Below are positions 40,118 through 59,771 of a DNA stretch of 64,000 nt, in pieces. Under the pieces are notes generated by a model. It was not told where the DNA came from, ran no database searches, and worked only from the letters and a program-made list of their open reading frames with translations. The translations under genes and the position numbers were made by a program. How positions within the stretch are numbered: the stretch's first letter is position 1; every line of letters begins with the position of its first letter. Source of the stretch: a phage; sequence record PZ386955.1, one strand, 5' to 3'.

Positions 40118-42697
40118 CTAGTGACAACTGGCCCATGAGTTACCAACATCGTAACCAGCAGTGAGAGGTACATTAAGATTGTAATACTCACCAGCTTTAT
40201 TAACAGCAATAGATGCTAATTCTCCAGCACGACTGTAGGCTGTAAACCAACCACCTTTCGGAGATTCATGTACGTTAGCCCAAATCTTGCCAGTACGTTT
40301 CTCTTCCTCTTCTTTCCAGGCATTAACTTTATCCAAACATTCTTTATCAATTTTCTTTTGTTCTTCTGGATCATCAACTTGAGTCCAACCTAAAGATTCT
40401 TTAGAGAACCATTTAAAATGCACCAGATCACGAGTTACTTCAAGCTGTGCTTCATCGTGGTATGCAATCATTTGTTGAACGAATGACTTATTTTTCCAGT
40501 CATCAACAAAAAAGTCAACAGCTAATCCTTCTTCTTCGATAAGATCGTCGTAGATAACCATTGCTCTTTTTGCACAAATAACACCACCACTCTGGAACAG
40601 AGAGTTAAGTATTGCGTGTGCAGATCGTGTAGGTACTTTTCTACCATCAATACCGAGAATGTATTTCTTACCTGTTTTAACCCAAAAATCATGCAGACGT
40701 TCTTTAAGAAGCGCAAGAGGTTTTGCAGCTTCCCAGAAAGCATCGTATACAAGCTGTCCTGTATACATATCACTACCAATAGTTTTTGCTACTTTTGCAG
40801 CTTGAGCACCATAAGTAATACCATACTTAACAGATTTAGCAGGGCTTCGTTCAAACTTACGACCAATAGTATCAGAAATACGTCGAGCCATCATTGTATG
40901 AACATCATTAGGTTTTTCCAACAATAGAGCATTACAATATTCGTGTGGTTCCTGCTCGTACCGCCAACAGTAGTGTGATTCTATTTTTGCCTCAAGAGAA
41001 TCAAAGTCATAACCAATTTGGAAGTATTTTGGAACTTCTACACCAAATAAGTTACGCATTTCATACCCGTACAAAGATGTTACACGTGGGATGTTTGCTA
41101 CTAACCTATGTTTCATACGAGACGTAGCTGCATCACACGTTGCAGCAGGAGTTGGTATACGACCATCAGCCCTTACTGCCGCCAGATACCCTTTATCATA
41201 ATCCTCTTCATCTTCTTCCCAATCAGCACCACCACCTAGAATAGAGTTTCTACGATGTTTATACGTAAGATACTGCACAATCTGCGTAGCATAAGGAAAC
41301 TTTTCACCTAGTGCTTCCAAGTTAGGACAAATATCCTTCTCTTGCCCTTTTGTAAAGGAAGGGTTAGTAAGCACTTTAACACCACGACCTTTAGCTTTAG
41401 CAATACGATCTCTTAGTTTCCATTCCAAAGTTTCTGGTGTGCACTCCAGATGATCACATCTATCCTGGCAGAAGTTAGATGCTAATGTTTGATCAACATA
41501 GTCACGAATAGCTTTCTCCATTTGTGCTTCATCTTTCTTAATCTTAGTGCCAGATTTAAGAGTGATATCTTTATCTTTATATTCAGATGGACTCCAACCT
41601 AAACCAACTAACCAATTTTTAATATGTGTAGTGTCATCTAAAGTAGCAGGTACTGTAGGATCACAAATAGGTTCTTCTGCTGGAATAGGTAGTTTAAACT
41701 CTTTACCTAATGCAAATAACCACCAACCATCTTCTTTTTGTACAAGTTCACCAGAATGTTTCTCTGCAAACTTTATCATGTTACTTGAAGGTTCACCATT
41801 CTTTTTAAACTGTAGTTTAGGTGGAATGAATGATTTCAAATAACCTTTAGTAGCAGGTTTAGGAGGTAGCACAGGTTCTGCCTCTAAACGACATGCTTCC
41901 ATTCGAGCATCCAGATCACGAATATTATCTTCTGCTTGTTTCATATTGAAAGCAAAGCCACGGTGCTCTTGACGTGTAATAATATCAGCTACACGTTGTT
42001 CTAAGTTAAATGGTTCAGACCACTTATTATAATCACCCCACTCTTCCATCAAATAACGGAACACTGCGGTGTTAGCTTTGTTATCGTAAATACAGTAATA
42101 CAGCATATCTGCTGCAAATGTTTTAAATCTTTCAGTTTCAGGAATGTTTTTTCTAAAATCAATTTTAACATCCCCTCCAGCTTTCTTAGATAACTCTGCC
42201 AGACTATGACCACCGAAGCGATCAGGGTTTAGTGTCTTACTTAAGATCATAGTATCACAAATTTCAATGTTACTATTACCCCAAGTATTGTACTTAATAC
42301 TGTAGTTGAGTTTAAAAAATAATTTAATTGCCAGTAAGTCGAAGTTAATGATGTTGTGTCCAACTACTTTGGTAATTTTATAGTTTGAATTACCTTTAAA
42401 TTTACCTGTTCCATTTACAAAATCAGGAAAATCTTTAAGAGGGAAATGGGTATATTCTAAATGCTCATATTCCTCCAGTCGGTATTCATACTTTCCGTCA
42501 GTCTCAATATACGGACGACCATCGAAAAGATATTTATCACCATCATGGAAAGCAATAATCTCTCCAGTATCATGACTTTCGCACACAATACAGTGCATTG
42601 CAAAACTATCTTTTAAACGATATGGACTTGCCAAGTAATCTACACTTTCGTCATTAAGCAAGTTGTTACTTTCAATGTCGAAAGTAAAAGCTCCCAT
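40118..42697 (-). CDS. DNA polymerase, family A, with 3'-5' exonuclease domain
   Basis: Exo I FTFDIESNN; motif A-like DFDSLEAKI; motif B-like RSPAKSVKYGITYGAQ; motif C IAYHDEAQ; 859 aa. Confidence 0.8.
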   Translation of the reverse strand: MGAFTFDIESNNLLNDESVDYLASPYRLKDSFAMHCIVCESHDTGEIIAFHDGDKYLFDGRPYIETDGKYEYRLEEYEHLEYTHFPLKDFPDFVNGTGKFKGNSNYKITKVVGHNIINFDLLAIKLFFKLNYSIKYNTWGNSNIEICDTMILSKTLNPDRFGGHSLAELSKKAGGDVKIDFRKNIPETERFKTFAADMLYYCIYDNKANTAVFRYLMEEWGDYNKWSEPFNLEQRVADIITRQEHRGFAFNMKQAEDNIRDLDARMEACRLEAEPVLPPKPATKGYLKSFIPPKLQFKKNGEPSSNMIKFAEKHSGELVQKEDGWWLFALGKEFKLPIPAEEPICDPTVPATLDDTTHIKNWLVGLGWSPSEYKDKDITLKSGTKIKKDEAQMEKAIRDYVDQTLASNFCQDRCDHLECTPETLEWKLRDRIAKAKGRGVKVLTNPSFTKGQEKDICPNLEALGEKFPYATQIVQYLTYKHRRNSILGGGADWEEDEEDYDKGYLAAVRADGRIPTPAATCDAATSRMKHRLVANIPRVTSLYGYEMRNLFGVEVPKYFQIGYDFDSLEAKIESHYCWRYEQEPHEYCNALLLEKPNDVHTMMARRISDTIGRKFERSPAKSVKYGITYGAQAAKVAKTIGSDMYTGQLVYDAFWEAAKPLALLKERLHDFWVKTGKKYILGIDGRKVPTRSAHAILNSLFQSGGVICAKRAMVIYDDLIEEEGLAVDFFVDDWKNKSFVQQMIAYHDEAQLEVTRDLVHFKWFSKESLGWTQVDDPEEQKKIDKECLDKVNAWKEEEEKRTGKIWANVHESPKGGWFTAYSRAGELASIAVNKAGEYYNLNVPLTAGYDVGNSWASCH

Positions 42698-46203: not shown

Positions 46204-47178
46204 TTAAAGACTTTCAATAACTTGACGACGCAGTTCATTGGCATCTGCAAGATTATAATTAAGACGAACGTGTTCTGCAAGCATCATACCACGATCTTCT
46301 GTGTATCTAGGGTTCCTCATTAGCTTGACAACTTCATAATGCCAAGATGCTTTAGAGTCTGCATAAATAACAGCCTTTGCATCTACTGGATTGAAGTACG
46401 GCAGCACAGGAGAACAGATAATAGGAAGACCCTTTGCACCTGCTTCCAAAATCTTCAAATTGCTTTTACAGTTGTTGAAGTCATTATCTACCAGAGGAGC
46501 AATTGCAATACTGTGACCGTCATACACAGACATATACTCACCTAGATTTTTAATAGCTGGTTTATACTGTGCATTTGGAATTTTACGTTTTATTTTAACC
46601 CACTCCGCAGTAGTTAGATACTGACTATTATTTCCAACAGGTGCAGAAGGATACACTTCGTACCCTGCAATTGTCAATAGTGTATCATCAAATGTATTAG
46701 CTACAAGAGATAAATCAGGTTCATGGCTTGCTCCTCCAGCCCAAACAATAGGTGTGTCAGAATAACGGTCTTTTGTTAAAGTAAATTGACCTTCATCGTA
46801 AGGCAGTGCGTTTCTAATAACGACAACATTACGATTTAAATGACGAATTTTGTAAGCTAGGTATTCTGTTGTTACAGTAACCACATCTGCTAACTTAATC
46901 ATCTCTACAATAGTCTTTGAGTGATTAGTAAATACGCCAGCCATATAATGTTCAGGATTAAGCGAATAAAAATCATCTAAATCAACAATAATCTTAACAC
47001 CTTGTGCCTTCAGGCGTTTAACTTCGTCTGATCCACGAGAATACACTCTATTAAAAACTAAAACGTCTTTCTTAGGTTTAAACGTATTTCCAGCAAATGG
47101 CATTACAATACGATGGTAATCACAACCACTGCCTAACTTATTATCACACTTAAGTACAGGAGTATTAGGATTTACCAT
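46204..47178 (-). CDS. Glycosyltransferase (GT-B-like), paralogue 2
   Basis: Block DGHSIAIAPLVDNDFNNCKSNLKILEAGAKGLPIICS nearly identical to paralogue 1; start taken at internal ATG 47178 after GAGGAGG (track start 47217 also possible). Confidence 0.5.
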   Translation of the reverse strand: MVNPNTPVLKCDNKLGSGCDYHRIVMPFAGNTFKPKKDVLVFNRVYSRGSDEVKRLKAQGVKIIVDLDDFYSLNPEHYMAGVFTNHSKTIVEMIKLADVVTVTTEYLAYKIRHLNRNVVVIRNALPYDEGQFTLTKDRYSDTPIVWAGGASHEPDLSLVANTFDDTLLTIAGYEVYPSAPVGNNSQYLTTAEWVKIKRKIPNAQYKPAIKNLGEYMSVYDGHSIAIAPLVDNDFNNCKSNLKILEAGAKGLPIICSPVLPYFNPVDAKAVIYADSKASWHYEVVKLMRNPRYTEDRGMMLAEHVRLNYNLADANELRRQVIESL

Positions 47179-47851
47179 ATTTTTGAGCCTCCTCATAAGA
47201 GATAAAAGTTTTACCATTGCGAAGATCCTCCAGTGATTGTTTATATTGTTCCCAGTTTACACCAATCCCCTGTTCTTTCTCTTCTTTTGACAGATTCGCA
47301 AAAGGTAAAGGATTGTCTCCAAACACATCGTCAGGATGGATAAACGCCATAATTCGAATAGGACATGGTACGCCGTGAATACCTCGGTTCAAACCTGCCA
47401 GTGGAACGCGCTGAATCCACTCTGCATCTTCATATCCATAACCGTGGGTGTATGAGCGGAAATAGCCAGCTTTCTCAATAACTGCACGGGAATACATACC
47501 AAACTGGCACATGCCTAGCTCCCAAATAACCACTTCTCCTTCAATACCTTTTACTTTATCTTTAAAGTATTCAGGCATACCAAAGAAATCCCAACCATTT
47601 TCCTTCGCCTGTTTTACAAAATATGTTTCCCAACCTGGAACAACAGGATAACAATCATCATCAAAAATAAACCAGTAGTCATACCCTTCATCATAAAACT
47701 TTTTCATCAGTTCATTACGGGCATATGCAACACCTTTTCGTTCACGATCATACTGTACAACAAAAGTAGCATTAGGATCAGTTACAAGATAATCTTTAAG
47801 AGGACGCTTACCTACAGTAATAACACCAACACCAATTTTTGTATTTTCCAA
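47165..47851 (-). CDS. Glycosyltransferase, GT-A-like (DxD motif)
   Basis: Rossmann-like N-terminus IGVGVITVGKRP and acidic FIFDDDCYP motif typical of family 2-like GT-A enzymes. Confidence 0.5.
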   Translation of the reverse strand: MENTKIGVGVITVGKRPLKDYLVTDPNATFVVQYDRERKGVAYARNELMKKFYDEGYDYWFIFDDDCYPVVPGWETYFVKQAKENGWDFFGMPEYFKDKVKGIEGEVVIWELGMCQFGMYSRAVIEKAGYFRSYTHGYGYEDAEWIQRVPLAGLNRGIHGVPCPIRIMAFIHPDDVFGDNPLPFANLSKEEKEQGIGVNWEQYKQSLEDLRNGKTFISYEEAQKYGKS

Positions 47852-47860
47852 AATAACTCC

Positions 47861-48424
47861 TTAAATAATTTTATTCATGTCTTGACAATGTAAAAGGTGT
47901 GAAACAGCTTTTCTAGGATCATCATTACCTAAACGGTATGTGTGAAATAAATATAACCCACGTAGTAAACCTAGCCTTTTATTGTTAGCGTGCAATGCTT
48001 TAGAGAAAATTATATCAAACTGTATTGATCTTTCCTCAAAAGGAATTTCATTCCACAGACTCTTACGAAAGAGAAGAAAGAATCCTGCTAAGATAGCATC
48101 TGTAGGTACTTCCTCTATTGAGTTTCCCCATTCTAGATGTGCTCTTTTTGCAATCTCAATGTGGTGTAATATATTCGGATCTTCACTTCTTTCATTATTA
48201 AATAATTGATATGTTGATCCCAATCTGTTACAAGATGCACCAAGAACATCAAAATCAGGATTTGAACGGACAATTGATTCCAGCCAAGCAGGTTGTTCTG
48301 GAAGAAGAAACATTGTATCAATGTCTCTTAGGCAAATCCAACTATCTTCTGGTAAGACACTTATTGTGTCATTGATACCTTTTCCAATATCTCCAGAAAG
48401 ATAGGGAGTTATGTGAAATATCAT
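47861..48424 (-). CDS. Hypothetical protein, possible GT-A-like glycosyltransferase
   Basis: ICLRDIDTMF acidic motif; adjacent to the glycosyltransferase genes. Confidence 0.3.
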   Translation of the reverse strand: MIFHITPYLSGDIGKGINDTISVLPEDSWICLRDIDTMFLLPEQPAWLESIVRSNPDFDVLGASCNRLGSTYQLFNNERSEDPNILHHIEIAKRAHLEWGNSIEEVPTDAILAGFFLLFRKSLWNEIPFEERSIQFDIIFSKALHANNKRLGLLRGLYLFHTYRLGNDDPRKAVSHLLHCQDMNKII

Positions 48425-48481
48425 ACTCCCTCCGTATTATTACTTTAGCATTTTTAGACTAAAAAGTCCAAATGGTTTTAC

Positions 48482-48676
48482 CTATTGATTACGTTTTGCG
48501 AGTTCCATTTGGATAGCTAAACTGTGATCTCGTGCTTCCATATACTCTTTATATGTTTCATTAAGATGATCACGACAAACATCACGCAGTTTAATCAGTT
48601 TATCTGTAGGGATACCACTAAGATCATCCCAAGATTTTACAACTTCACCAGTATCATTGATCCCAATGGTTTTCAT
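48482..48676 (-). CDS. Hypothetical protein
   Basis: 64-aa ORF. Confidence 0.3.
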   Translation of the reverse strand: MKTIGINDTGEVVKSWDDLSGIPTDKLIKLRDVCRDHLNETYKEYMEARDHSLAIQMELAKRNQ

Positions 48677-48884
48677 CTACAACCTCCTTAATTGCTACAG
48701 CACAGTTTTTGCAGATACACTGCCCTTTACCTTTAGAAATCTGGATGTAAGGTTCATTTTCATTTTCGCCCTTACGTGAGTCATATATTACAGAATTGAA
48801 GCACACAACGCAAATATTTTTTAAGATTGTATACTTATCAACTTTCTTTTTTGTTTTAAAGTTAACTTCAATAACATCAGCCAT
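48654..48884 (-). CDS. Small zinc-ribbon protein
   Basis: CVVCF ... CICKNC pairs of cysteines; start at internal ATG 48884 overlapping upstream stop (ATGA). Confidence 0.4.
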   Translation of the reverse strand: MADVIEVNFKTKKKVDKYTILKNICVVCFNSVIYDSRKGENENEPYIQISKGKGQCICKNCAVAIKEVVDENHWDQ

Positions 48885-49162
48885 CAGTGTAACACTCCCA
48901 GTATGTTGCTTTGTGACATAACCATAGAACATTCAACATTATCGTGACTACGTGAAAAACGTTCCCAAACATCTTCATCGACTCGTAAAGCTATACAAGG
49001 ATAGACGTTATCATTGATCATTTCAATTGAATAAACATCCACATTGTCTTCGTCTTCGATGAACATCATTGCAAACTGTTCTAAATGTTTCCTAATGTAA
49101 TGTACATCCTCTTCTGTAAGACCAATAACAAGATAACTTGCAACGATAATGCCATCTTTCAT
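48884..49162 (-). CDS. Hypothetical protein
   Basis: 92-aa acidic ORF. Confidence 0.35.
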   Translation of the reverse strand: MKDGIIVASYLVIGLTEEDVHYIRKHLEQFAMMFIEDEDNVDVYSIEMINDNVYPCIALRVDEDVWERFSRSHDNVECSMVMSQSNILGVLH

Positions 49163-49172
49163 CTATATCTCC

Positions 49173-49682
49173 TTAGCGATAGAATTGATGTTCTTTGTAG
49201 CGGTACACTAGAACCATATCTTTTTCCCAGTGTGCTCTTATTGTAGATTTTTTAAAGTATAATGCTCCTTTTGTAATATCTAATGCAATTCGTAATTCTG
49301 GAAAATGCGTATCGAGATAAAGTAGACGTTCTGCTATAGCCTTAGCTTCCTTCCACTTATCACGTTCCATAACGTTGAATGTCTTTGTGTAAGAGAATTG
49401 TCCTTTTTGAAACAAAACTTCTTTTATAGTATCAGGGAAATATGAATCTCTAGCCCTATTCAATACTACATTACCAACAGCAGACATACCGCGCTTTCCT
49501 TGATTACGACTTTCTGCATAGATTGCACAAGCTAATAGATTTTCTTTACTATCACGCTTTGTACACTTGTGAACTACTTTAGCAGTTTTTACGTTTGCAG
49601 CTTCGGCTTGCGCCACAACAGGTGTAAATGTAAAAGCAGTTAAGGATAGTAACGCAATTGCGACAAAGGTTTTTATTGACAA
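49173..49682 (-). CDS. Secreted cell-wall hydrolase (SleB/CwlJ-type), candidate endolysin
   Basis: N-terminal signal peptide MSIKTFVAIALLSLTAFTFTPVVAQA; hydrolase block LLACAIYAESRNQGKRGMSAVGNVVLNRA. Confidence 0.6.
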   Translation of the reverse strand: MSIKTFVAIALLSLTAFTFTPVVAQAEAANVKTAKVVHKCTKRDSKENLLACAIYAESRNQGKRGMSAVGNVVLNRARDSYFPDTIKEVLFQKGQFSYTKTFNVMERDKWKEAKAIAERLLYLDTHFPELRIALDITKGALYFKKSTIRAHWEKDMVLVYRYKEHQFYR

Positions 49683-49774
49683 ACTTGCCTCCTATTTTGT
49701 TAAACGAACTTTTATTGTAACACAGAAGAGGCTGTTTTGCAAGTGGAGGGGGATTATCCCCCTCTTACACTCTG

Positions 49775-50377
49775 TTAGATATTGTAAACCTTCGTATGAG
49801 TTACTACACCATCTTCTACAAAATCAATACGTTCTTGATCCGTAACTAGTGCAGACAACACTTTAAATTTAATTTTTACACGTTCAAAAGCTGGTTGACC
49901 ATCTTTAAGATAATTATGTTCGGTTGTCACTGTCTTGTTTACAAAATCAACTTTCGCTTTACCGTTTTCGCGTAGGTGGAATGTTTTTCCTGCTTTGTAC
50001 ACAATTTCAACATTACCTTCGAGAATAATTCCTTCAAAAAGTTCACCCTCTTCTTCATTTTCTTCACTTTTGAACAGACGACGAAACTCTTCCATATCAA
50101 GATAAACAACATCTTCAGAATAACTATCAGTAAGGTATGTCTTACCATCCATTAACCCGAAATATTGCCAGATCGCAGAATAAACATCACTAGTTGATCC
50201 AAGGGTTTCTCTGAGTTTAGTTCCACGGATTACTTCATAAACTTCAAAATTGAAACCAGACTGCAAAGCATCAAACAGTACATCACTAACTTCTACAGCA
50301 TAATCTTGATTGTTGTCAACATCCACAAGAAAATTGCCGCTACGAATAAGTTTTTGACCTTCTAAAGTAATACCCAT
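49775..50377 (-). CDS. Hypothetical protein
   Basis: 200-aa acidic ORF downstream of TerD; no recognisable motif. Confidence 0.4.
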   Translation of the reverse strand: MGITLEGQKLIRSGNFLVDVDNNQDYAVEVSDVLFDALQSGFNFEVYEVIRGTKLRETLGSTSDVYSAIWQYFGLMDGKTYLTDSYSEDVVYLDMEEFRRLFKSEENEEEGELFEGIILEGNVEIVYKAGKTFHLRENGKAKVDFVNKTVTTEHNYLKDGQPAFERVKIKFKVLSALVTDQERIDFVEDGVVTHTKVYNI

Positions 50378-50404
50378 TGTTTTCTCCTCTTTTATTTAAA
50401 ATAT

Positions 50405-50420
50405 GCGCCCCGAAGGGCGC
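50405..50420 (-). terminator. Rho-independent terminator after the TerD gene
   Basis: GCGCCC-CGAA-GGGCGC hairpin; on the minus strand followed by ATATTTTAAATAAAAG. Confidence 0.55.
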
Positions 50421-50429
50421 TATGATTTA

Positions 50430-51026
50430 TTACTCGAACCAATCGTCGCCAGCGCCAAACGCTTTAACTACATCGTAAATGTCAAGCCCAGCTTTACCCA
50501 CACCATACGCTTTCAGTTTCCATTCGCTATCTTCTCGCACCAGGGAGGCAACGTGGCAAATGGTGTTACCTGCAAGTTCTGGAGCCAAGAAGTCAAAGTC
50601 CAGCAGTTCAACATTACGTTCATCATCGAAGATTTTAAGGAAACCTTCGGTAGCGTGACCAAGGCGTTTCTTACCCGTTTCGTCATCAATAGTAATTACG
50701 AATGCAATTTCCTGTGCTTCAGCAGAGATATTATCCAGTGTAACATCAATCTGCTCCATCTGTCCTACACCATCACGAACATCTTCACCTGCAAAAGTAG
50801 AACGTTCAGGATCAAATTTCTGCGCGTAGCACACCAGGTGACGAGGAGACAACAGTTCCGGCAGACCAGATGCATTGTGTCGGCAAATCAGAGCACTAAC
50901 ATCCAGATCCAGTTTTTCGTTAGATTTCCAAGAGAATTCCAGACGAATGCGTTTCAGTGCTGGTGCAATCTTTTTCAGAGAAACTTTTTCGCTAGAACCT
51001 TTTTTCAGGGAAATTTTCTGAGTCAT
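50430..51026 (-). CDS. TerD-family protein (tellurium-resistance TerD/TerE/TerZ domain)
   Basis: N-terminal ISLKKGSSEKVSLKK, DLDVSAL, IAFVITIDD, C-terminal EWKLKAYGVGKAG align block-by-block with R478 TerD. Confidence 0.75.
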   Translation of the reverse strand: MTQKISLKKGSSEKVSLKKIAPALKRIRLEFSWKSNEKLDLDVSALICRHNASGLPELLSPRHLVCYAQKFDPERSTFAGEDVRDGVGQMEQIDVTLDNISAEAQEIAFVITIDDETGKKRLGHATEGFLKIFDDERNVELLDFDFLAPELAGNTICHVASLVREDSEWKLKAYGVGKAGLDIYDVVKAFGAGDDWFE

Positions 51027-51098
51027 AATTTATTATCTCCTTTGTTGTTAATTTACGTTGTCTATTTTACTAATCTTTTCTACAAAGTCAAGCGTTTT

Positions 51099-51893
51099 TT
51101 ACGCTTTTGCTCCAAATTTTTTAACCCACTCACCAAACTCTTCGGATAGCAGTTTATCGTAAAGTTCTTCGTCAGACAAGGACAAATCTGCAATACCGAT
51201 AAAATCAACATTATCGTATTCTTTTGCCAAGTCTTTCAGGAATTTAAAGTTTGCATTACCTACACCAACCATAAACCAGTAAACAGGCGTATTGCGGTGT
51301 TTGTTCAGTAAGCTACGTACTGCTGAAGTATCCATGTTCTCCCCGTCAGTTTGGAAGAAAATCATTGCAGGAGTACGATCAACTTGTGCATCAGTATCTA
51401 CAACCTGTTCTACAACAGTACGTGTTACTTCTACAAGTTCTTTTTTACCAGTTAGTTTAGCAAGGAAACCTTTAGCCGGAACTTCTTCATACTCAACGAC
51501 TTCGCGTGTAATATTTTTCATAGGTACACTACCGAAGTATGTATCATAGATCTCTTGCATTACTGGAGCATAAGCAGTACCACCGTTGATGCAAACATTA
51601 GACATGCAAGAGCCGACATAATCATCATACACATCAGCCGTTGCAGGAGGCAGTTCAAAAGAAGAACTATTGAAAGCCCACATGTCAATCTGTGCATTAT
51701 CATCAAACTTCATACCAAACGGCAGCAGTTTACCTACAAAATCGCTAACAGTGCCATCACGATACAGCTCACACATACTACCCGAAATATCTAAGGCGCT
51801 ACCTACACGAAGAACAACATCGTTAATCTTTTTCTTACGCAGGGATACAGTAAGAGTTTCTTGACGTTTTTTAAGACTGATTTTATTGGACAT
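51099..51893 (-). CDS. von Willebrand factor A domain protein (TerY-like)
   Basis: MIDAS-type motif DISGSM and downstream FFQTDGENMD (TDG motif); N-terminus ISLKKRQETLTVSLRKK resembles the TerD N-terminal strand. Confidence 0.65.
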   Translation of the reverse strand: MSNKISLKKRQETLTVSLRKKKINDVVLRVGSALDISGSMCELYRDGTVSDFVGKLLPFGMKFDDNAQIDMWAFNSSSFELPPATADVYDDYVGSCMSNVCINGGTAYAPVMQEIYDTYFGSVPMKNITREVVEYEEVPAKGFLAKLTGKKELVEVTRTVVEQVVDTDAQVDRTPAMIFFQTDGENMDTSAVRSLLNKHRNTPVYWFMVGVGNANFKFLKDLAKEYDNVDFIGIADLSLSDEELYDKLLSEEFGEWVKKFGAKA

Positions 51894-51894
51894 A

Positions 51895-52164
51895 TTATTT
51901 CTCCTTTCTGACTGTAATGTTAGTAACTTCTAAATCCACTTCTACCACTTCTGTATCATATAAAATACAGTTAAGTTGACCTCTTTGTGAACCGTTAAGA
52001 CACATTGCTTGGTTTGTATTAACCTTAATAAACACTAAGTTTCTGAACGTATCTAAACCAGCATCTTGATAGGCAACATAATATACGAATGTATCACCTG
52101 TGTCAAGTTCTCCAAAACATTTAGGTTCATCTGATTTGTCGTCTTTGATATTAAATTTAAGCAC
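51895..52164 (-). CDS. Hypothetical protein
   Basis: 89-aa ORF coupled to the vWA gene. Confidence 0.35.
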   Translation of the reverse strand: MLKFNIKDDKSDEPKCFGELDTGDTFVYYVAYQDAGLDTFRNLVFIKVNTNQAMCLNGSQRGQLNCILYDTEVVEVDLEVTNITVRKEK

Positions 52165-52720
52165 TGTCTTCTCCTTTACCTGCTCTCAAGCCTAAATAGA
52201 AAGCCTCTCTAGTGATTTTTTGCAACTCGTTTAAAGAGATAGTTACAACTAAATCATCTTCAATTTCTAGCTTTGAGTCTTCTTCTGTCTCAATGCAAGT
52301 ATTATGCACTTTGTGGTAAGGATTGTCAACACGTTTAAATTTATTATTTTCAGTGCTGAAGAAGCAATCTGGATCTTCTTCTCCATCACCCCAACCCTGG
52401 TTAGGGTCTTCTTCAGATCTTTCTGTTGGGATCTCACCTGTAAAGTGTTCTTCTAATACCAGAGCAATCCCATCTCCAAGATCGGAAGAGAACATCAAAT
52501 TACAAACTTCTTCCCAAGGCATAGACCACTTGAATCTTTTACGATTGCCATGTTTATCTTCTTCGTTAGAGAAAACACTACCATAGCTATCATAATTCCC
52601 ATACATCTCTTCGACAACCTTACCACCTTTCAAAAGAAATAGGTAGCAAGGAGAGCCATCGAAAGAGGTAGAAAGAGCAGCATTACCAGACTCTTTGCAC
52701 AAGAAACTAAAACACCCCAT
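52157..52720 (-). CDS. Hypothetical acidic protein
   Basis: 187-aa ORF, Asp/Glu-rich, Cys-containing. Confidence 0.4.
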   Translation of the reverse strand: MGCFSFLCKESGNAALSTSFDGSPCYLFLLKGGKVVEEMYGNYDSYGSVFSNEEDKHGNRKRFKWSMPWEEVCNLMFSSDLGDGIALVLEEHFTGEIPTERSEEDPNQGWGDGEEDPDCFFSTENNKFKRVDNPYHKVHNTCIETEEDSKLEIEDDLVVTISLNELQKITREAFYLGLRAGKGEDSA

Positions 52721-52920
52721 TATACACCAGCCTTAAGATCAATTAAAGCCAAAGTTGTTTCAGAGTGTGTTTGCTCGTCTACAGGTGCAGTCATATGATA
52801 ATACAAAAAATCTTCGGCATCATACCAATCTGATTCTTGACCTTGTTTCCAACCATCAATGAAAGCATCTTCCATAATGGTTTGCAATTCTTCACGAGTT
52901 AAGTGAATATCTTTACTCAT
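52720..52920 (-). CDS. Hypothetical protein
   Basis: 66-aa acidic ORF, coupled. Confidence 0.3.
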   Translation of the reverse strand: MSKDIHLTREELQTIMEDAFIDGWKQGQESDWYDAEDFLYYHMTAPVDEQTHSETTLALIDLKAGV

Positions 52921-53126
52921 TACACATTCTCCTCTTTTACCAATTCCATCGTTGAACTATCAAAACCATCTTTAGAAGAATAGGTATAGACAGAACGTAG
53001 TTCTCGCAGGACAGTGAATACATTGGGATCATCTAACCAAGCATCCTGGAGGAGAACATAACGATCTTCATTGTCGTACTGGACAGCAATCATAGAACCA
53101 GACAGTTTGTAAATTTTAATATTCAT
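52920..53126 (-). CDS. Hypothetical protein
   Basis: Start moved to internal ATG 53126 preceded by AAGGAGAA (track start 53153 overlaps upstream gene). Confidence 0.3.
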   Translation of the reverse strand: MNIKIYKLSGSMIAVQYDNEDRYVLLQDAWLDDPNVFTVLRELRSVYTYSSKDGFDSSTMELVKEENV

Positions 53127-53139
53127 AATATATTTCTCC

Positions 53140-54243
53140 TTAAAGTAGACCACGTTTAACAGTTTGAATCATACCATCTTCAAGAGATTGCACTTCTTGA
53201 ATGTAATCAATACGCGCAGCACGGGCTTCAGTGTTGATTCGGTTAGTTTCTTCCAACATTTTAACTAAGTTTTCTTGATCGCGACGTAATGTTTCAATAT
53301 CCAATACTTGACGATTAGCAAGTTGTGTAGCTTCAATTTGGTTTTGTGCAGCCAGATCACTACCCATTGCAATAGCAGCATTAAATTCATTCAGCACATT
53401 GTTCTGTGTATCGGCTGCTTTCTTCTGGCGTAGACTTTCAATATACATAGAAAAGTTTGCAGAGTAAGCAGGGATAACATTATTCACAATATTACGGGCT
53501 GATCGCATCAAACTTGCAGATACTTTCTGCATACTTTGTACCCGTGGCCCCATCTGAACACACAGTAAACGCAAGGCTTTCAGGTCTGCAATACGAATTT
53601 CAAGCAGATCCATAGTATCACGAGTACGTTGACGCTCTTCTACTTCATTTTCAGGTAGTGTATTAAGGCGAACTTCTTCTTTTTCATAAGTAGCTGTTAG
53701 AAGCTCTATATCCCTGTTTAAGCTAAGAGCATATTTTGCAATAGCCTCTTCTAAACGTTGCAGATATCGTAAAGAATCTTCTTCTTTTTTCAAGTCTGTT
53801 TGTAGTGTCTTTACCAAACCTTCAATACGGTTATTGATGGTGTCAAATTCTCCAAACAAATCTTCTTTCATACCTAATACTTTCTTAACTAGTTTACCTA
53901 AGCCTTTAGATTGTTTAATAGAGTTAGGATCAAGTTGCTTTGCTTGCTTAATAAGTGCAGTTAAACGTTCACTCATTTCATCCCCCTGAGATGAACGCTG
54001 GTGTTTAAGCACTTCAGCATTAAGGTTACGAAGAGTAAGTCCTGCATCAGCACCAACTTGTTCAATCTCTTCACGAGACATTGGAGGCAGCATTTGTACA
54101 GGTCGTGCAACAGCAGGGGCATATACAGGGCTTGCATCCATAGCACTTGGAGCAAACAAAGACTTACTTTTTTCTGTTGTTGCCGTGAATACACTCATTT
54201 CAGACGGTTTGCTTTTTACGGCACTGATAAAAGGACTGGACAT
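53140..54243 (-). CDS. TelA/KlaA-like toxic-anion-resistance family protein (tentative)
   Basis: 367-aa, predicted largely helical/coiled-coil, size and composition fit TelA; located among TerD, vWA and TerC genes; not verified by HMM. Confidence 0.4.
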   Translation of the reverse strand: MSSPFISAVKSKPSEMSVFTATTEKSKSLFAPSAMDASPVYAPAVARPVQMLPPMSREEIEQVGADAGLTLRNLNAEVLKHQRSSQGDEMSERLTALIKQAKQLDPNSIKQSKGLGKLVKKVLGMKEDLFGEFDTINNRIEGLVKTLQTDLKKEEDSLRYLQRLEEAIAKYALSLNRDIELLTATYEKEEVRLNTLPENEVEERQRTRDTMDLLEIRIADLKALRLLCVQMGPRVQSMQKVSASLMRSARNIVNNVIPAYSANFSMYIESLRQKKAADTQNNVLNEFNAAIAMGSDLAAQNQIEATQLANRQVLDIETLRRDQENLVKMLEETNRINTEARAARIDYIQEVQSLEDGMIQTVKRGLL

Positions 54244-54311
54244 TCAATTTCCTCCATATTCTTTAGTAGATGGTGATACCTCTGTACCACCATCATAACA
54301 CAAATTAAGTA

Positions 54312-55163
54312 TTAAACAAACATATCTAAATAATTTGTAGTAATAAATGCTCCATCTGCTTCCAGATTAACATAACCAGTAGCATTAGTGGTTAAGAAAT
54401 CCAGATCGAAGGACTCTTTAACACCCCGTACCTCAACACGAGAGATATCGAATACAGGTAGTGTAACAGCCTCTTCGTGCAATACCGTACCTTTGTAGGT
54501 TGCCTTAATGATAAACTTGATATTACCCGTTCCAGCATCATACAAAACACTTTCAAACCCTTTGAGAGTATACTTATCACCAGAAGTGAAGTGCAAAGTT
54601 GCTTTGTTTACAGTACGTTTCTTACGAGGAGTTCCTTTCACACGTTTATGATCACTACGTTTTTTGTATTTAGGAATGAATACAAACGATACATTGTGAA
54701 GAAAGGTATCAACATCAAGGATTTTAATATCCTCTGTTGCAGCAAATTTTGAAGTTGTTGCATCAAAATGCTTTTCCCTGCGATCATACATAAAGATATC
54801 AAACCGATCTTCTAAATCAAACAAATTATGTATTTTAATTTCAGAATGCTTGCGCATTGCAGCAACCTTGAACTCTTCAAAACGTGGGTGTTCTACAAGT
54901 TCTTCAAGTTTTACACCAAAGACAGTATATTGCTTCGGAGTTTTTTCTGGTGTTGGCATTACAGAAGCATAATCCCCGATTGCGCTCTTAAAGCAAAATT
55001 GTTCTTGACCTGTATTTTTACCAACGAATTTACAGTATTCGTCATCGTGCATACTTTCCTGGGTAGTACCAACAAACTCAAAACCATCTTTATTCTTCTC
55101 AAGAATTTCTTGATTAAAGATCCAACCTTCCAGGCGATACACTTTACCAACTTCTAGTTTCAT
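54312..55163 (-). CDS. Hypothetical protein
   Basis: 283-aa ORF, Lys-rich central region. Confidence 0.4.
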   Translation of the reverse strand: MKLEVGKVYRLEGWIFNQEILEKNKDGFEFVGTTQESMHDDEYCKFVGKNTGQEQFCFKSAIGDYASVMPTPEKTPKQYTVFGVKLEELVEHPRFEEFKVAAMRKHSEIKIHNLFDLEDRFDIFMYDRREKHFDATTSKFAATEDIKILDVDTFLHNVSFVFIPKYKKRSDHKRVKGTPRKKRTVNKATLHFTSGDKYTLKGFESVLYDAGTGNIKFIIKATYKGTVLHEEAVTLPVFDISRVEVRGVKESFDLDFLTTNATGYVNLEADGAFITTNYLDMFV

Positions 55164-55198
55164 CTGTTTCTCCTTCTTATTTAATCTGTATTAAATTA

Positions 55199-55789
55199 TT
55201 AACGACGACGTGAGCTACTAAAACTACGTTTCGACGAAGAATAACTTTTCGAAGACTTACTATAAGAGCTAATAGGGCTTGAGTAAGACTTACGAGCAGA
55301 GTAATTACTATTCACTTTTGTTGTTGATGGGCGTGAATACGTTTGTACACTTTGCTGCTTAATTGTGTTTTGTTTAGTGGTTGTATATGTATTCCCTTGT
55401 TTATCATAAAAACTATGCTTTTGTGTTGTATATGCTTTACTGTTAGTTATAGGAGCAGCGTTGTTATTAATAATTGTTGTGCTGCTACCACCATCCCTAT
55501 AACCACCACCGCCACTATTACCACTCAACATATGACCAAGAAGCATACCTGTAGCGAACTCACCTACGCCAGAAGAACCACTGCCGCCTCCTTGAACAAC
55601 AACTGTTGAAGGTTGTGCAGGTGCTGCTTGAACAACTTGAGGTGCAGGTTGATTTACATATTGCTCATCTACCATCTGATTTGGTGTTTGTTGGTAACGT
55701 TGATTTTGTACATTTTCAGAATCATCACAACCTACCAGCAATACACTACCTAAAACAACTGCAACAATAAAAGATTTAATGTTTTTCAT
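55199..55789 (-). CDS. Lipoprotein with glycine-zipper and Ser/Tyr/Lys-rich tail
   Basis: Signal peptide plus lipobox MKNIKSFIVAVVLGSVLLVGC; GGGSGSSGVGEFATGMLLGHMLSG; C-terminal SYSKSSKSYSSSKRSFSSSRRR. Confidence 0.55.
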   Translation of the reverse strand: MKNIKSFIVAVVLGSVLLVGCDDSENVQNQRYQQTPNQMVDEQYVNQPAPQVVQAAPAQPSTVVVQGGGSGSSGVGEFATGMLLGHMLSGNSGGGGYRDGGSSTTIINNNAAPITNSKAYTTQKHSFYDKQGNTYTTTKQNTIKQQSVQTYSRPSTTKVNSNYSARKSYSSPISSYSKSSKSYSSSKRSFSSSRRR

Positions 55790-55982
55790 TTGTAACCCTC
55801 TCATTTAAAGTCTCAACACAATTTTTAAAATCCCTAGAGAAACAATACATCTGTTCTCCGTTCCTGTTGATAGTAATTGTATGGTTATCAATATATGTTG
55901 TCAAGATAAAAATCAAACAAAACAACCCTAGAGCAAAACAAATATTTTCAAACAGAATCCAAAGAACACGTAAAACCACCAT
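55776..55982 (-). CDS. Small membrane protein
   Basis: 68 aa with hydrophobic helix; stop overlaps the lipoprotein start by 14 nt. Confidence 0.35.
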   Translation of the reverse strand: MVVLRVLWILFENICFALGLFCLIFILTTYIDNHTITINRNGEQMYCFSRDFKNCVETLNERVTNEKH

Positions 55983-56021
55983 CAGATCACCTCAACAAAG
56001 CCCCCGAAGGGGCTTAATGAA

Positions 56022-56999
56022 TTAAGCAACAGTCTGGTCTTCTTTTTCAGGGAAGATTAAACTTGCAATAACACCCAACCCAAGAGTACCTAACACGATA
56101 TACATACTGATCGTCGGGTCAATGTGTGCTGGCAGGAAACTCATTTTTGCGTGCAGAGTTTCTGCAAACGGATGATACATCAGTTTTACACCCACAAACA
56201 CCAAGACTACGATAACTGCTTTCTCCAGATGAACCAAATACTTCAGTGCAACACTAAGAACAAAGAACAGAGCACGTAAACCTAAGATTGCACAGAGCAT
56301 CGAAGAGAACACCAGCAGAGGTTCTTGTGTCACTGCAATTACTGCTGGAACAGAGTCTACTGCAAAGATTACGTCAACCATTTCCATTACAAACACACAA
56401 ACCAGAGCCGGAGTTGCTACACGAACACCATTTTTGATTGTGAAGAACTTCTCACCATCCATCTGATCAGATACAGGGAACAGCTTACGAACAATGCGAG
56501 TAGCCCAGTGTTTAGAGTAATCAACTTCTGCATCATTATCTCCAGCGAATACCATTTTAGCCGCACAGAAAAGGATGACAGCACCGAAGAAGATATTAAC
56601 ATACCAGCCCAAACTCAACAAGTAAGTGCCTACTGCTACAAACACACCTCGGAAGACAATCGCACCTGCAATACCCCAAAGTAGAATCTTGTGTTGTAAG
56701 TGTGTGCTTTTAATACCAAAACTTGCGAATACTGCCACAAATACTACTAAGTTATCTACAGAAAGAGATTTCTCCAACACATACCCACTCAAGAACAAGC
56801 TCGCAAAATCAGCACCGTGTTGGAAGTATACAAAACCATAGTAGGCTAATGATACTCCAATCCAGAAAATTGACCAGCCAATTGCAGATTTAAATGAAAT
56901 TTCTTTGTTTTCTCTGTGTCCAAAGAAGTCAATACAAATCGACAAGACTAAAATACCCACTAAAACAACCACATCAATAATTGGGAAACCCAGTTGCAT
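56022..56999 (-). CDS. TerC-family integral membrane protein
   Basis: Multi-pass membrane protein with duplicated TerC signature: EKSLSVDNLVVFVAVFASFG and FAVDSVPAVIAVTQEPLLVFSSMLCAILGLRALFF. Confidence 0.75.
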   Translation of the reverse strand: MQLGFPIIDVVVLVGILVLSICIDFFGHRENKEISFKSAIGWSIFWIGVSLAYYGFVYFQHGADFASLFLSGYVLEKSLSVDNLVVFVAVFASFGIKSTHLQHKILLWGIAGAIVFRGVFVAVGTYLLSLGWYVNIFFGAVILFCAAKMVFAGDNDAEVDYSKHWATRIVRKLFPVSDQMDGEKFFTIKNGVRVATPALVCVFVMEMVDVIFAVDSVPAVIAVTQEPLLVFSSMLCAILGLRALFFVLSVALKYLVHLEKAVIVVLVFVGVKLMYHPFAETLHAKMSFLPAHIDPTISMYIVLGTLGLGVIASLIFPEKEDQTVA

Positions 57000-57076
57000 T
57001 CTTTTCTCCTCTTTAATGCGGAGGACAATCCTCCGCTCTATGTCTTATACTATAAACTGTTTTTAAAGAAAGTCAA

Positions 57077-57325
57077 CTAGTTCAGTTCTGTAATTTTAAG
57101 TTTATCTTCTTTGTTAATGATAGGGAAAGCTACAGCATCACCTACATCATCAATAAAGCAAATAGCAAGACCACCTTCCACTTTGCTAACCTGACCATTA
57201 AAGGCATGATACGGGGCAGGAACTTCATCTCCATCTTCAATGAGAATAGCCTCGTAAACCTTGCCGATAGTACAATCACGGGTGTTTATAAATTTTTCAA
57301 GCACTTCAACATTTACTTTACGCAT
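57077..57325 (-). CDS. Hypothetical protein
   Basis: 82-aa ORF upstream of TerC. Confidence 0.35.
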   Translation of the reverse strand: MRKVNVEVLEKFINTRDCTIGKVYEAILIEDGDEVPAPYHAFNGQVSKVEGGLAICFIDDVGDAVAFPIINKEDKLKITELN

Positions 57326-57339
57326 ATAAAGATCCTCTC

Positions 57340-57546
57340 TTATTTGTTAGATTGAAAGATACCACGGAGTACCGCAAGAATGAACGTCACACAGACTACA
57401 CTCCAAAACGTTACAGGAACATGATGCCAGTCTAAGCCGATAATGTCAATCATATAATTGTATGCTAAAAGCAGTAGCCAACTAGGGATTAACACAATCA
57501 AGAACACAACAATAAAACAACCTAATACTGCTAAAACACCTGCCAT
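57340..57546 (-). CDS. Small two-TM membrane protein (holin-like topology)
   Basis: 68 aa with two hydrophobic helices and a short charged C-terminus. Confidence 0.4.
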   Translation of the reverse strand: MAGVLAVLGCFIVVFLIVLIPSWLLLLAYNYMIDIIGLDWHHVPVTFWSVVCVTFILAVLRGIFQSNK

Positions 57547-57555
57547 ACTTTCTCC

Positions 57556-58272
57556 TTATTTCAGTTTGTAAACAATTACATTTAAACCTTTGTTTACTAG
57601 AGTTTCTTCGATCATAAGTTTTACAATATTCCAAGAACCTCCAGCCAAACCACAACCAAGCATTGGTAAACCTACAATTTTACCGCCTGAAGATACAACA
57701 TCGTCTCCCATACTATCTAGCGCATTGTAGATAGCTTCATAATTCAGGTCACGCTTACCTTCCTCACGACGACTATAACCATATTGTCCATATAAATTAT
57801 AAATTGTCAAATTGTTTTCTGTATATTTGGTAAACGTACCTAATTTTTTATAATCACCACGTTTAGTGGCACAATCTGCTTTAAACGCACCAGGCCACTT
57901 GCTTTTAATTTTTGGTGCAATACCACTACCCATAGTGCAAAAACAGTTACAGCAGTGTGCTATAGCGTCTATATCGCCTCTCTCGGCTGCTGCTAAAAGA
58001 TCACCGTATACCTCAATGATACCTGCTGGATAACTTGTTACAATTTCATCTTCCCAGTACATTTTCTCTACACCACCGATCAGTGCAAAGTTTTGTGTAA
58101 TGCGATCATCAATATAGTTAAGACCTGAAACATACACAGCGTATTCATCCTGTGCTGTAATACCTTGCACACGAATTCTTAAGACACCATCTTTATCTGT
58201 TGCTACACGCCCAAAATCTTTTTCTGTAATATTGGTGATAGGATCTCCGAAAGTCATTACTTTATTAGACAT
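57556..58272 (-). CDS. Macrodomain protein, TARG1/OARD1-like (ADP-ribose processing)
   Basis: C-terminal ~150 aa align with human TARG1: GDLLA..(11)..IAHCCNCFCTMGSGIA vs GDLFA..LAHCISEDCRMGAGIA; LPMLGCGLAGGSWNIVKLMIEE...VIVYKL vs [24 protein letters not shown]...ITVYTL. Start at internal ATG 58272. Confidence 0.65.
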   Translation of the reverse strand: MSNKVMTFGDPITNITEKDFGRVATDKDGVLRIRVQGITAQDEYAVYVSGLNYIDDRITQNFALIGGVEKMYWEDEIVTSYPAGIIEVYGDLLAAAERGDIDAIAHCCNCFCTMGSGIAPKIKSKWPGAFKADCATKRGDYKKLGTFTKYTENNLTIYNLYGQYGYSRREEGKRDLNYEAIYNALDSMGDDVVSSGGKIVGLPMLGCGLAGGSWNIVKLMIEETLVNKGLNVIVYKLK

Positions 58273-59122
58273 AATAATCCCCTTTAACATTAGATTTGTT
58301 GATAATGTTGCTTTCAAAAAATTGACGTAGGAAATCAAAGTTCTCTTTGTATTTTTCAATGTTATTGTAACCTTCTGCAAGGCAACCAAAGAACAGTTGT
58401 TCTACATAATACAAAGGAAGTTGTGAAAGTGCAATTTTAAAATCAACTTCGCTTTGACTCATTAGATACTTAATAGGACGAACCAAACATTTAGCATCAG
58501 TTTCTTGCTTAATCATTTTAATAAAAGCTGCCAGATTATTGATATAGTTGAAGTTAAGTGCAGCTTCGGTATTGGCTTCTGTACCTTCATACTTTGCAAA
58601 GTACAGGAAAAACGTATCGTTTTCAACACCTTCTTTGTCTAAAATTTCAATAAGTTTTTCTTCGTGCGTTCCTGTAATATTAACATCATCAATGAAAATC
58701 AGAGTTTTATTACCCCAGAAATCACGATTGATAGAGAAAGTGTCACCATCGATCAAAGCCTTACGATCTTCTTTGCTAAGAAATCCATAATCATTGATAT
58801 AGCTCACTTTACGATGAACGATATCCCACTCCACTGGTTTACCACCTTTGATAGAGATTAGGTAGTTGAGGTGATCTACAAAATGTTCAGATAACACTGT
58901 AGCTGCATTTTTCACATAGTTATATGGAGATGGAATAACAACAAAACTTTCATTTACCAGTCGTTCTTCATACTTAGAAAAGAAACTTTCAGCCAGAATG
59001 CGCCCCATTCTTTTTGCTGCCTGGTTACTACCAAACTTTAGCTTGGAATAATCTGCAATGTTAAATTTTGCTTCCTTCAGGTTAGTAAAAGTATTAGCAA
59101 AATGTTGAATTTGATTACGCAT
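58265..59122 (-). CDS. Phosphoribosyltransferase (type I PRPP-binding motif)
   Basis: PRPP-binding signature TLIFIDDVNITGTHEEK; stop overlaps the macrodomain start by 8 nt. Confidence 0.55.
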   Translation of the reverse strand: MRNQIQHFANTFTNLKEAKFNIADYSKLKFGSNQAAKRMGRILAESFFSKYEERLVNESFVVIPSPYNYVKNAATVLSEHFVDHLNYLISIKGGKPVEWDIVHRKVSYINDYGFLSKEDRKALIDGDTFSINRDFWGNKTLIFIDDVNITGTHEEKLIEILDKEGVENDTFFLYFAKYEGTEANTEAALNFNYINNLAAFIKMIKQETDAKCLVRPIKYLMSQSEVDFKIALSQLPLYYVEQLFFGCLAEGYNNIEKYKENFDFLRQFFESNIINKSNVKGDYYV

Positions 59123-59771
59123 TAATAAGTTCCTCTTTTTTAAGTTTAGCCAACAAGTCTTCTGGATTAATAATATGACAGAACTTCATCCCTATGTCAA
59201 CAGCTTTTCCATCATAAATCAAACTATCTCCAACGTGTAAAATCTCCTCTGGTGCAAGATCAAACGTCACCATTTCATCAAAAGAGAGTTTAAAAAACCT
59301 AGGATCTGGTTTACACAAGCAAAACTCGTCAGAAAAATGCATAAAGTCGAATGGTAATTTTGTTAAACCAGAATATACAGCTAAGAAACTACCTGGTACA
59401 AAATTAGTATTGCTCTTAATACTCAAAGAATAGGTTGAACTTAGCTCTTCCAACTTCTTGCAAAGTTCAGGATTCAATGTTGGAGGATGTTTTATAAACA
59501 TTGCTAAACAGTCTCTTTTTAACCCATCCACTTTATCAAGATCAATGTTCAAACGAGTAGAAAGTGTAACCCAAGCATCCTTAGACGTTCCACAAATGCC
59601 TTTTTCTGCTTTTAAATCCAAGAGGGTTTTTACCTCTTTATATACGGTAGCTGCTTCTACCTCAGAACAAGAGGCATACTCGGCAATGACCTTGTTGCGC
59701 TCTTCTGCATACAAAGGGTTAGCAGTAATAAGAGTATTCCATACATCAAAAGAAATATGCTTAACAGTCAT
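59115..59771 (-). CDS. HAD-superfamily hydrolase-like protein
   Basis: Motif I-like ISFDVWNTLI and motif IV GDSLIYD; start at ATG 59771 with GGAGGA RBS; stop overlaps PRTase start by 8 nt. Confidence 0.45.
   Translation of the reverse strand: MTVKHISFDVWNTLITANPLYAEERNKVIAEYASCSEVEAATVYKEVKTLLDLKAEKGICGTSKDAWVTLSTRLNIDLDKVDGLKRDCLAMFIKHPPTLNPELCKKLEELSSTYSLSIKSNTNFVPGSFLAVYSGLTKLPFDFMHFSDEFCLCKPDPRFFKLSFDEMVTFDLAPEEILHVGDSLIYDGKAVDIGMKFCHIINPEDLLAKLKKEELINA

Follow-up and report, generated by a model that had tools for sequence, protein, structure and literature searches.

The gene at positions 49173–49682 of phage sequence record PZ386955.1 encodes what appears to be an exported peptidoglycan hydrolase of the SleB type, which raises the question of whether it is the endolysin with which this phage lyses its host or an enzyme with a different task. 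The window, by which we mean the whole stretch of 64,000 nucleotides that was analysed, comes from a phi92-like Escherichia myovirus (Justusliebigvirus, Stephanstirmvirinae). Its first position is the first base of terL, equivalent to phi92 coordinate 56345, and over positions 47000–53000 the window shares 100% identity with phage Nernie and 98.5% with phi92. The preliminary description of this locus had read the gene product as an endolysin that is either Sec-exported or of the signal-anchor-release (SAR) type.

According to the ORF list and the sequence, the gene comprises 169 codons and a stop on the minus strand and begins with TTG; its product is 100% identical to phi92 gp170 (YP_009012502.1) by tblastn. 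The features of the gene are the following.

49173..49682, minus strand: coding sequence of the SleB-like exported hydrolase, orthologue of phi92 gp170 (ORF list, tblastn, PF07486)
49605..49682, minus strand: predicted Sec signal peptide, residues 1–26, with the predicted cut after AQA (sequence, homologues, pLDDT below 50)
49512..49514, minus strand: codon of Glu57, putatively catalytic; YAES aligned with YGES of Bacillus SleB
49179..49502, minus strand: Hydrolase_2/SleB catalytic domain, residues 61–168 (Pfam, AlphaFold2 model, phmmer to 4F55/4FET)

The signal peptide and SleB-type hydrolase block that had been noted in the preliminary description are both borne out. Pfam Hydrolase_2 (PF07486, SleB/CwlJ) matches with an E value of 6.5e-20 and 72.1 bits, against a gathering score of 27, over profile positions 2–100 of 100, and is the only domain detected in the protein; PG_binding_1 was not found by Pfam. 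The only solved relatives by sequence are the catalytic domains of Bacillus SleB, 4F55 and 4FET (phmmer). An AlphaFold2 model built on 49 homologues has a pLDDT of 86 overall and above 90 for residues ~35–169, with residues 1–30 disordered (below 50), and in a Foldseek search of the PDB it matches 4FET and 4F55 only (probability 1.00, target-normalised TM 0.73–0.76). The fold begins at about residue 38, ahead of the Pfam-matched residues 61–168. As homologues are found in 1148 phage records and 6144 cluster representatives, the assignment of the gene is far beyond chance.

In terms of catalysis, Glu57 aligns with the glutamate of the SleB YGESRGE motif; only four positions (E57, V72, N75, and R76) are invariant in the divergent alignment of 49 sequences, and the Y-x-E-[AS]-R motif is kept in 131 of 143 family representatives. 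The protein is probably a glycan-strand-cleaving peptidoglycan enzyme that would act as a lytic transglycosylase via Glu57; we infer its activity and bond specificity from Bacillus SleB. Bacillus SleB needs muramic-δ-lactam, and the E. coli wall is without that modification. Cys40 and Cys52 are invariant across the close family and would probably form a periplasmic disulfide beside the catalytic helix; the corresponding C-x(~11)-C-x4-E motif is present in 34 of 143 representatives and absent from Bacillus SleB. [quoted passage not shown] By analogy, SleB-type activity in a Gram-negative periplasm is plausible.

The N-terminus reads MSIKTFVAIALLSLTAFTFTPVVAQA up to the predicted cut and EAANV beyond it; its n-region contains a single Lys, a hydrophobic core follows, and the predicted cleavage site has Pro at −6 and the A-x-A pattern at −3/−1. 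A positive n-region, Pro at −5/−6, and small −3/−1 residues are kept in all 20 close homologues (60–98% identity), among which the c-region itself varies (AQA, VYA, AKA, GIA, VHA, ALA, AYA, SEA, and VEA); a varying c-region within a kept layout is the pattern expected for a conserved signal-peptidase I site. An N-terminal hydrophobic segment is found in 135 of the best 150 family representatives, with a median core run of 13 residues, and the orthologues from T5 (MKAAWLLVAALTFSFSSQA before the cut, S after it) and from the rV5-type phage Murica (MKIKIFAIILSALLSLPVVA, followed by A) have short classical signal peptides. The kept layout supports the Sec export that had been claimed, and the protein is very probably exported through Sec.

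The location of the gene also agrees with the preliminary description, which had placed it in an accessory region, outside a lysis cassette and without an adjacent holin or spanin. The gene sits in a minus-strand block of replication and accessory genes, outside the structural module. Its downstream neighbour is a 92-aa ORF (48884–49162) without a predicted transmembrane (TM) segment, and upstream lie the genes for an uncharacterised 200-aa protein, TerD, and vWA-TerF; neither a membrane protein nor a spanin was found among the neighbours on both sides.

The role of endolysin, in contrast, most likely falls to another gene. The 166-aa product of phi92 gp061 is a full-length homologue of T4 lysozyme, gpe (phmmer E ~1e-52 over residues 6–165), which matches dozens of T4L entries and Pfam Phage_lysozyme and has no hydrophobic N-terminus; Nernie carries the same T4 gpe-type lysozyme at 58828–59328, where it is annotated “hypothetical protein”; the lysozyme gene falls beyond the limits of the window. 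By tblastn, 56 phage records have a match to this lysozyme at ≥95% identity and 77 have one at 60–90%, compared with 55 and 77, respectively, for the SleB-like protein; from these near-equal counts it follows that the two genes co-occur across Stephanstirmvirinae. A search for spanins in the rest of the genome, a check that the preliminary description had proposed, reveals an Rz/Rz1 pair directly upstream of terL and just outside the window, consisting of an i-spanin (PHROG 4297, E = 1.9e-40) and an overlapping lipoprotein o-spanin (PHROG 1267, E = 2.7e-17, lipobox MMTGC). It is the T4 gpe homologue, not the SleB-like protein, that has the character of a signal-less cytoplasmic enzyme; the latter is without canonical endolysin features, carrying a signal peptide and being unlinked to holin or spanin genes.

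Genetic evidence comes from a relative, Bas54 (MaxBurger, Vequintavirus), in which transposon insertions have been mapped in the HIDEN-SEQ preprint (10.1101/2025.11.20.689424, Data S2). The SleB-like gene bas54_0065 is hit at 32 of 36 TA sites and is non-essential, whereas the endolysin bas54_0202 (0 of 24 sites), the i-spanin (0 of 29), and the o-spanin (0 of 19) are all scored Essential (10.1101/2025.11.20.689424). Along its full length, the bas54_0065 protein shows 41% identity to the window protein (E = 1e-40); it has the same build of signal peptide and Hydrolase_2, and its gene lies directly upstream of rIIA; bas54_0202 belongs to PHROG 90, endolysin. Because insertions in bas54_0065 are viable and bas54_0202 is essential, Bas54 can form plaques without its SleB-like enzyme, and that enzyme cannot stand in for the endolysin, a result that applies to a 41%-identical orthologue from another subfamily on E. 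coli K-12 under laboratory conditions.

With a T4 gpe homologue and spanins present and the Bas54 orthologue non-essential, lysis genes elsewhere make the SleB-like gene redundant as an endolysin, and the gene most likely encodes an accessory enzyme that is neither endolysin nor SAR enzyme. The core lysis set of the lineage would comprise the cytoplasmic T4 gpe-type lysozyme, the Rz/Rz1 pair by terL, and a further holin. The model as a whole, an accessory Sec-exported wall hydrolase that is expressed from its own transcription unit and is not the principal endolysin, has in our estimate a probability of about 0.62.

Sec-crossing endolysins are known, among them fOg44 Lys44, P1 Lyz, and R21 of phage 21, and they are sole and essential in their phages. 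A Sec-exported endolysin of the Lys44 type would reside in the periplasm, be kept in check by the energised membrane, and be unleashed when a holin or pinholin depolarises it; the SleB-like enzyme would then account for a substantial part of lysis or be enough on its own, perhaps with the T4-type lysozyme as a redundant second enzyme. The window protein has an export signal and an intact muralytic domain, as such an enzyme would, and is labelled “endolysin” both in RefSeq and in its best PHROG, 938; the cleavable Sec signal characteristic of Lys44 is matched only in sequence pattern and conservation. [quoted passage not shown] The SleB-like gene of Certrevirus shares its 3′ end with an overlapping 2-TM ORF. 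In T5, CRISPRi-ART scores both the SleB-like gene and lys as “Not Fit”, and the lack of a fitness cost on lys knockdown could reflect redundancy between the two; however, as lys is itself “Not Fit” and T4 e was missed by the method too, we take this score as uninformative for enzymes. We consider a Lys44-type role unlikely, as the Bas54 endolysin is essential despite an intact SleB-like gene whose own insertion mutants are viable, each genome of the subfamily has a T4 gpe homologue and spanins, and the window gene has no membrane-protein neighbour.

The products of 57340–57546 and 25216–25461 had been proposed as holin partners. Both are real small membrane proteins, but neither adjoins the SleB-like gene or is linked to it. 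The former, phi92 gp184, is encoded inside the Ter/phosphoribosyltransferase cluster and has a PHROG of “unknown” function; the latter, phi92 gp144 (81 aa), comes from the baseplate/tail-fibre module and is assigned to PHROG 1322, “membrane protein”. The Justusliebigvirus phage BME3, described in 2025, “encodes two endolysins”, a lysozyme and a SleB homologue; the proteins near both are without TM domains, distant proteins of 61 and 81 residues look class II holin-like, and two genes specify the spanin (PMC12210895). The product of 25216–25461 matches the 81-residue one of these two BME3 candidates in its length and its class-II-like topology. For the 2-TM ORF of Certrevirus, no homologue reached significance either in the window or in phi92 (best E 0.054, phi92 gp029). 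A TM scan of phi92 predicted TM segments for ~42 ORFs, a list in which many entries are probably spurious, and did not single out a holin. An exported enzyme reaches the wall by itself, so that a holin is not needed.

A SAR enzyme would retain its N-terminus as an uncleaved tether that holds it inactive at the inner membrane until depolarisation frees it. The hydrophobic segment of the window protein is indeed long, with 22 uncharged residues that are rich in Ala, Thr, and Ser, and its Hessa-scale sum, a crude measure, is 0.93, about as low as for the SAR domains of P1 Lyz and R21, so that by its hydrophobicity alone the protein might be kept in the membrane; in addition, the authors of the phi92 study assigned SignalP signal peptides to six other genes and not to gp170. 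The same crude score is 6.26 for T5, 4.43 for phiTE, and 3.25 for the family median, and among 143 single-domain representatives of the family 106 exceed 1.5. The segment is devoid of Gly, the distance from anchor to fold is ~20 residues, and the Pro-preceded small −3/−1 motif is kept in all 20 close homologues while the flanking residues vary. The h-regions of the T5 and rV5-type orthologues, at ~12–15 residues, are too short to span a membrane, and no pinholin was identified. Because the −3/−1 motif is conserved, Gly is absent, and the orthologue signals are short, a cleaved, soluble periplasmic enzyme is favoured over a SAR anchor, which we regard as improbable. A virion-associated entry lysin or a catalytically dead wall-binding protein is more improbable still, as the gene lies in the minus-strand replication and accessory block and not in the structural module, a protein that carries a cleavable export signal cannot take part in virion assembly in the cytoplasm, the catalytic Glu is invariant together with the motif around it, and the Bas54 orthologue is non-essential, even if large myoviruses often have extra lysozyme-like virion proteins and a gp25-like baseplate lysozyme is present in the rV5 group.

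The favoured reading, that of an accessory exported hydrolase, includes a transcription unit of its own. The gap upstream of the gene is 92 nt long and holds a hairpin and then a promoter, with the following elements.

49746..49764, minus strand: GC-rich hairpin GAGGGGG-ATAAT-CCCCCTC, 10 nt past the upstream stop codon; terminator-like or insulating
49714..49742, minus strand: predicted sigma-70-type promoter, with −35 TTGCAA at 49737–49742, a 17-nt spacer, and extended −10 TGT-TACAAT at 49714–49722
49726..49732, minus strand: tentative anti-SD segment GCCTCTT in the promoter spacer; pairing with the Shine-Dalgarno (SD) sequence possible in read-through transcripts only
49688..49693, minus strand: SD sequence AGGAGG, 5 nt before the TTG start at 49680–49682

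The region was compared in 11 sequences, comprising the window, nine diverged relatives from metagenomic contigs (54–77% protein identity), and one Phapecoctavirus. The hairpin is part of the minimum free energy (MFE) fold in all 11, with stem sequences that differ yet stay complementary; TGnTAnAAT is likewise present in 11 of 11 and the −35 TTGC in 10, and GGAGGC and the TTG start are invariant. The hairpin, kept by compensatory changes, together with the promoter, the SD sequence, and the TTG start constitutes a conserved private control module, which is a new observation here. Within the window, the hairpin is the only G5-N(3–7)-C5 element and is followed by no clear U-tract, and the RNA fold of the upstream region has a z score of −3.89. 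The simplest reading is that the SleB-like gene would be insulated from the upstream Ter genes and would take its own level from a host-type promoter. A sigma-70-like function is predicted for this element from its sequence; such a promoter does not establish the timing of expression.

A scan for promoter consensus matches overall gave 30, compared with 22.5 ± 4.4 in shuffles, which is no enrichment, and the counts of a recurrent promoter family like the upstream element are near chance in the window and in phi92; the upstream element is therefore locus-specific. TTG starts ~11 of 167 genes of the phage (crude caller) and is not rare, so that only its invariance across the relatives is notable. 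The SD sequence is predicted to be paired (unpaired probability ≤0.05) in 8 of 11 read-through RNAs, with shuffled controls often pairing the SD too, and in one clade it is paired even in the short transcript (partition-function folding). Masking of the SD by the anti-SD segment in read-through RNA is suggestive only. A functional tie of the gene to the Ter cluster was considered and rejected, as the synteny is confined to Stephanstirmvirinae, with other neighbours for the homologues in T5, rV5-type phages, and PaP1, and as the hairpin and promoter part the two transcription units.

In the mechanism that we propose, the gene would be transcribed from the extended −10 host-type promoter just past the conserved hairpin and translated from the conserved weak TTG start, with its dose decoupled from that of the upstream Ter genes. 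The protein would be made with a classical Sec signal peptide and exported across the inner membrane, and signal peptidase I would cut after Ala26 to release a soluble periplasmic protein of ~16 kDa, in which the Cys40/Cys52 disulfide would probably form. There, in the course of infection, it may cut or remodel the sacculus to a limited and non-lethal extent, which would help in certain circumstances, for example with particular hosts or states of the wall. A further-reaching proposal, which we put forward tentatively, is that the exported SleB-type enzyme is a conserved periplasmic effector rather than a lysis protein in virulent phages of several mutually unrelated lineages that infect Gram-negative hosts (T5-like, rV5-like, phi92-like, and PaP1-like), uncoupled from the holin clock by expression from a host-type promoter and remodelling the sacculus at a dose tightly limited by the module of hairpin, promoter, anti-SD, and TTG start. 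If that were so, the remodelling might help the phage to cope with particular wall states or hosts, to keep competitors out, or to ready the envelope. Such a second, self-exporting wall hydrolase is found in more than 1000 phage genomes; in one relative it is apparently dispensable in the laboratory, and finding its role would be a modest but real gain for phage-envelope biology.

The gene, its signal peptide, the layout with two “endolysins”, and the dispensability of the orthologue are already in databases or papers. A second muralytic enzyme, with Rz/Rz1 beside terL, has been described in CB7 and rV5-like phages (PMC7344957). In T5-like Salmonella phages, an M15 endolysin lies beside the holin and the SleB-type gene lies far off (PMC11180984), and a Phapecoctavirus paper likewise reports a second “endolysin” distant from the holin. 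A 2026 preprint on a UPEC endolysin was set aside, as it concerns an unrelated SAR lysozyme.

Among the related systems, the SleB-like proteins of rV5-type phages (bas54_0065, Murica gp002, CB7_83, and PVP-SE1 gp243) combine a signal peptide with Hydrolase_2 as the window protein does, share 41% full-length identity and the C-x11-C-x4-E motif with it, and are also encoded apart from the endolysin and the terL-linked spanins. Their genes, including those of Vequintavirus, differ in lying directly upstream of rIIA and behind a terminator that leaves no space for a promoter, and the Certrevirus gene has its overlapping 2-TM ORF, whereas the window gene follows Ter genes, has its own promoter, and has no membrane protein beside it. 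The T5 “sleB” product (T5.083/AAX12015) also joins a classical signal peptide to Hydrolase_2 (E = 1.4e-26) and is exported; its gene belongs to the early region, where it follows an annotated early promoter at a great distance from the lys-holin pair. Its identity to the window protein is ~36% and limited to the catalytic domain, and it has another Cys pattern and an ATG start.

The Bacillus SleB catalytic domain (4FET, 4F55) has its fold and catalytic-Glu motif in common with the window protein at 23–24% identity. The latter differs in being without an N-terminal PG_binding_1 domain, in its extra Cys pair, and in its substrate, which cannot be muramic-δ-lactam cortex. As Hydrolase_2 is the only domain detected and the host is E. 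coli, the window protein is a member of the Hydrolase_2 family and not an orthologue of SleB. Like Lys44, P1 Lyz, and R21, it is a muralytic protein predicted to cross the membrane through Sec without a holin pore, but those proteins belong to other enzyme families and are sole endolysins, whereas the window protein coexists with a canonical endolysin and has a dispensable orthologue. The T6SS effector T6EC3 (PMC11148199) shares the SleB-like domain and acts in the E. coli periplasm with Glu-dependent toxicity, and differs in being T6SS-delivered, in having an immunity-protein partner, and in being detectable only by structure.

Finally, in phi92 gp170 and the orthologues from Justusliebigvirus and Phapecoctavirus, the gene, its neighbours, and its upstream control region are the same, and nothing of substance differs. 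Automated pipelines label the SleB-like gene “endolysin” and the real T4-type lysozyme “hypothetical protein” or “baseplate hub”; such labels can mislead catalogues of lysis genes, which matters for annotation and for enzybiotic mining. The Justusliebigvirus and Phapecoctavirus orthologues themselves are annotated either “putative cell wall hydrolase” or “endolysin”.

In all nine diverged metagenomic relatives compared, the gene order vWA-TerF, TerD, and the SleB-like gene, which encodes the predicted exported Hydrolase_2 protein, is conserved. The window, from a strictly lytic coliphage, holds the full complement of Ter-type "stress response" genes at 50430–59122 (−). The TelA-like, TerC-like, phosphatase, PRTase, and hydrolase identities within this set are taken from the phi92 annotation, and the following members are placed by coordinate.

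50430–51026, − strand, TerD (Pfam-confirmed)
51099–51893, − strand, vWA-TerF-like protein (Pfam-confirmed)
56022–56999, − strand, TerC-like membrane protein (identity from phi92 annotation)
58265–59122, − strand, phosphoribosyltransferase-like protein, PRTase (identity from phi92 annotation)

Two further elements lie beside or inside this set. Between the gp171-like gene and TerD sits a perfect GC-rich palindrome, GCGCCCCGAAGGGCGC (window 50405–50420), the flanks of which are T-rich on both strands and which scores as a terminator in either orientation. Within the Ter cluster, the counterpart of phi92 gp180 (window 55199–55804, −) encodes a predicted lipoprotein of 201 aa with a signal sequence, an LVGC lipobox, and a long low-complexity tail rich in Ser, Gly, and Gln; judged from its sequence, it would be a further exported phage protein besides the SleB-like one.

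In the Vequintavirinae, an annotated intrinsic terminator lies ~20 nt before the start of the SleB-like gene, leaving no room for a promoter between them (Murica, L009 2459–2995; phiTE, L011 1951–2716; Bas54, L021). A hairpin directly upstream of the SleB-like gene is therefore common to the Stephanstirmvirinae relatives and both Vequintavirinae genera examined. The Murica gene starts with a GTG codon. In Vequintavirus the SleB-like gene overlaps the start of rIIA, whereas in Certrevirus it overlaps the gene for a 65-aa membrane protein instead. In T5, an M14 zinc carboxypeptidase-family ORF, ORF082 (L007 609–1277), lies near the SleB-like gene in a common early block. As murein-peptide amidases belong to the M14 family, one might speculate, purely as conjecture, that ORF082 hints that T5 processes peptidoglycan or muropeptides at an early stage.

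The T4 gpe-type lysozyme gene of this phage group lies outside the window, at the following positions.

Nernie (PP925835) 58828–59328, T4 gpe-type lysozyme
phi92 23600–24100, T4 gpe-type lysozyme

Across the group its product is variously labelled "hypothetical protein", "baseplate hub", "baseplate hub subunit and tail lysozyme", "endolysin", or "e lysozyme", and in RefSeq and pharokka-style records the "endolysin" label goes to the SleB-like gene, a pattern that is likely a systematic annotation swap.

The window phage also differs from phi92 in two tail-fibre or tailspike cassettes, 23573–25220 and 33946–36765 (+), which look like host-range module swaps. A 532-aa protein (23421–25019) stands in place of the phi92 endosialidase region (gp143), and a 939-aa fibre-like ORF (33946–36765) replaces gp152/gp153, with ~950 bp absent from phi92. 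Conversely, the DNA polymerase gene of phi92 contains 732 additional bp (at window ~40967–40969, −), a length divisible by 3, and its nrdD contains ~288 additional bp (at window ~62759–62769, −), where the phi92 record annotates a "spliced variant". Because both insertions are missing from the window phage, these segments suggest mobile intervening sequences, intein or intron, present in phi92 only.
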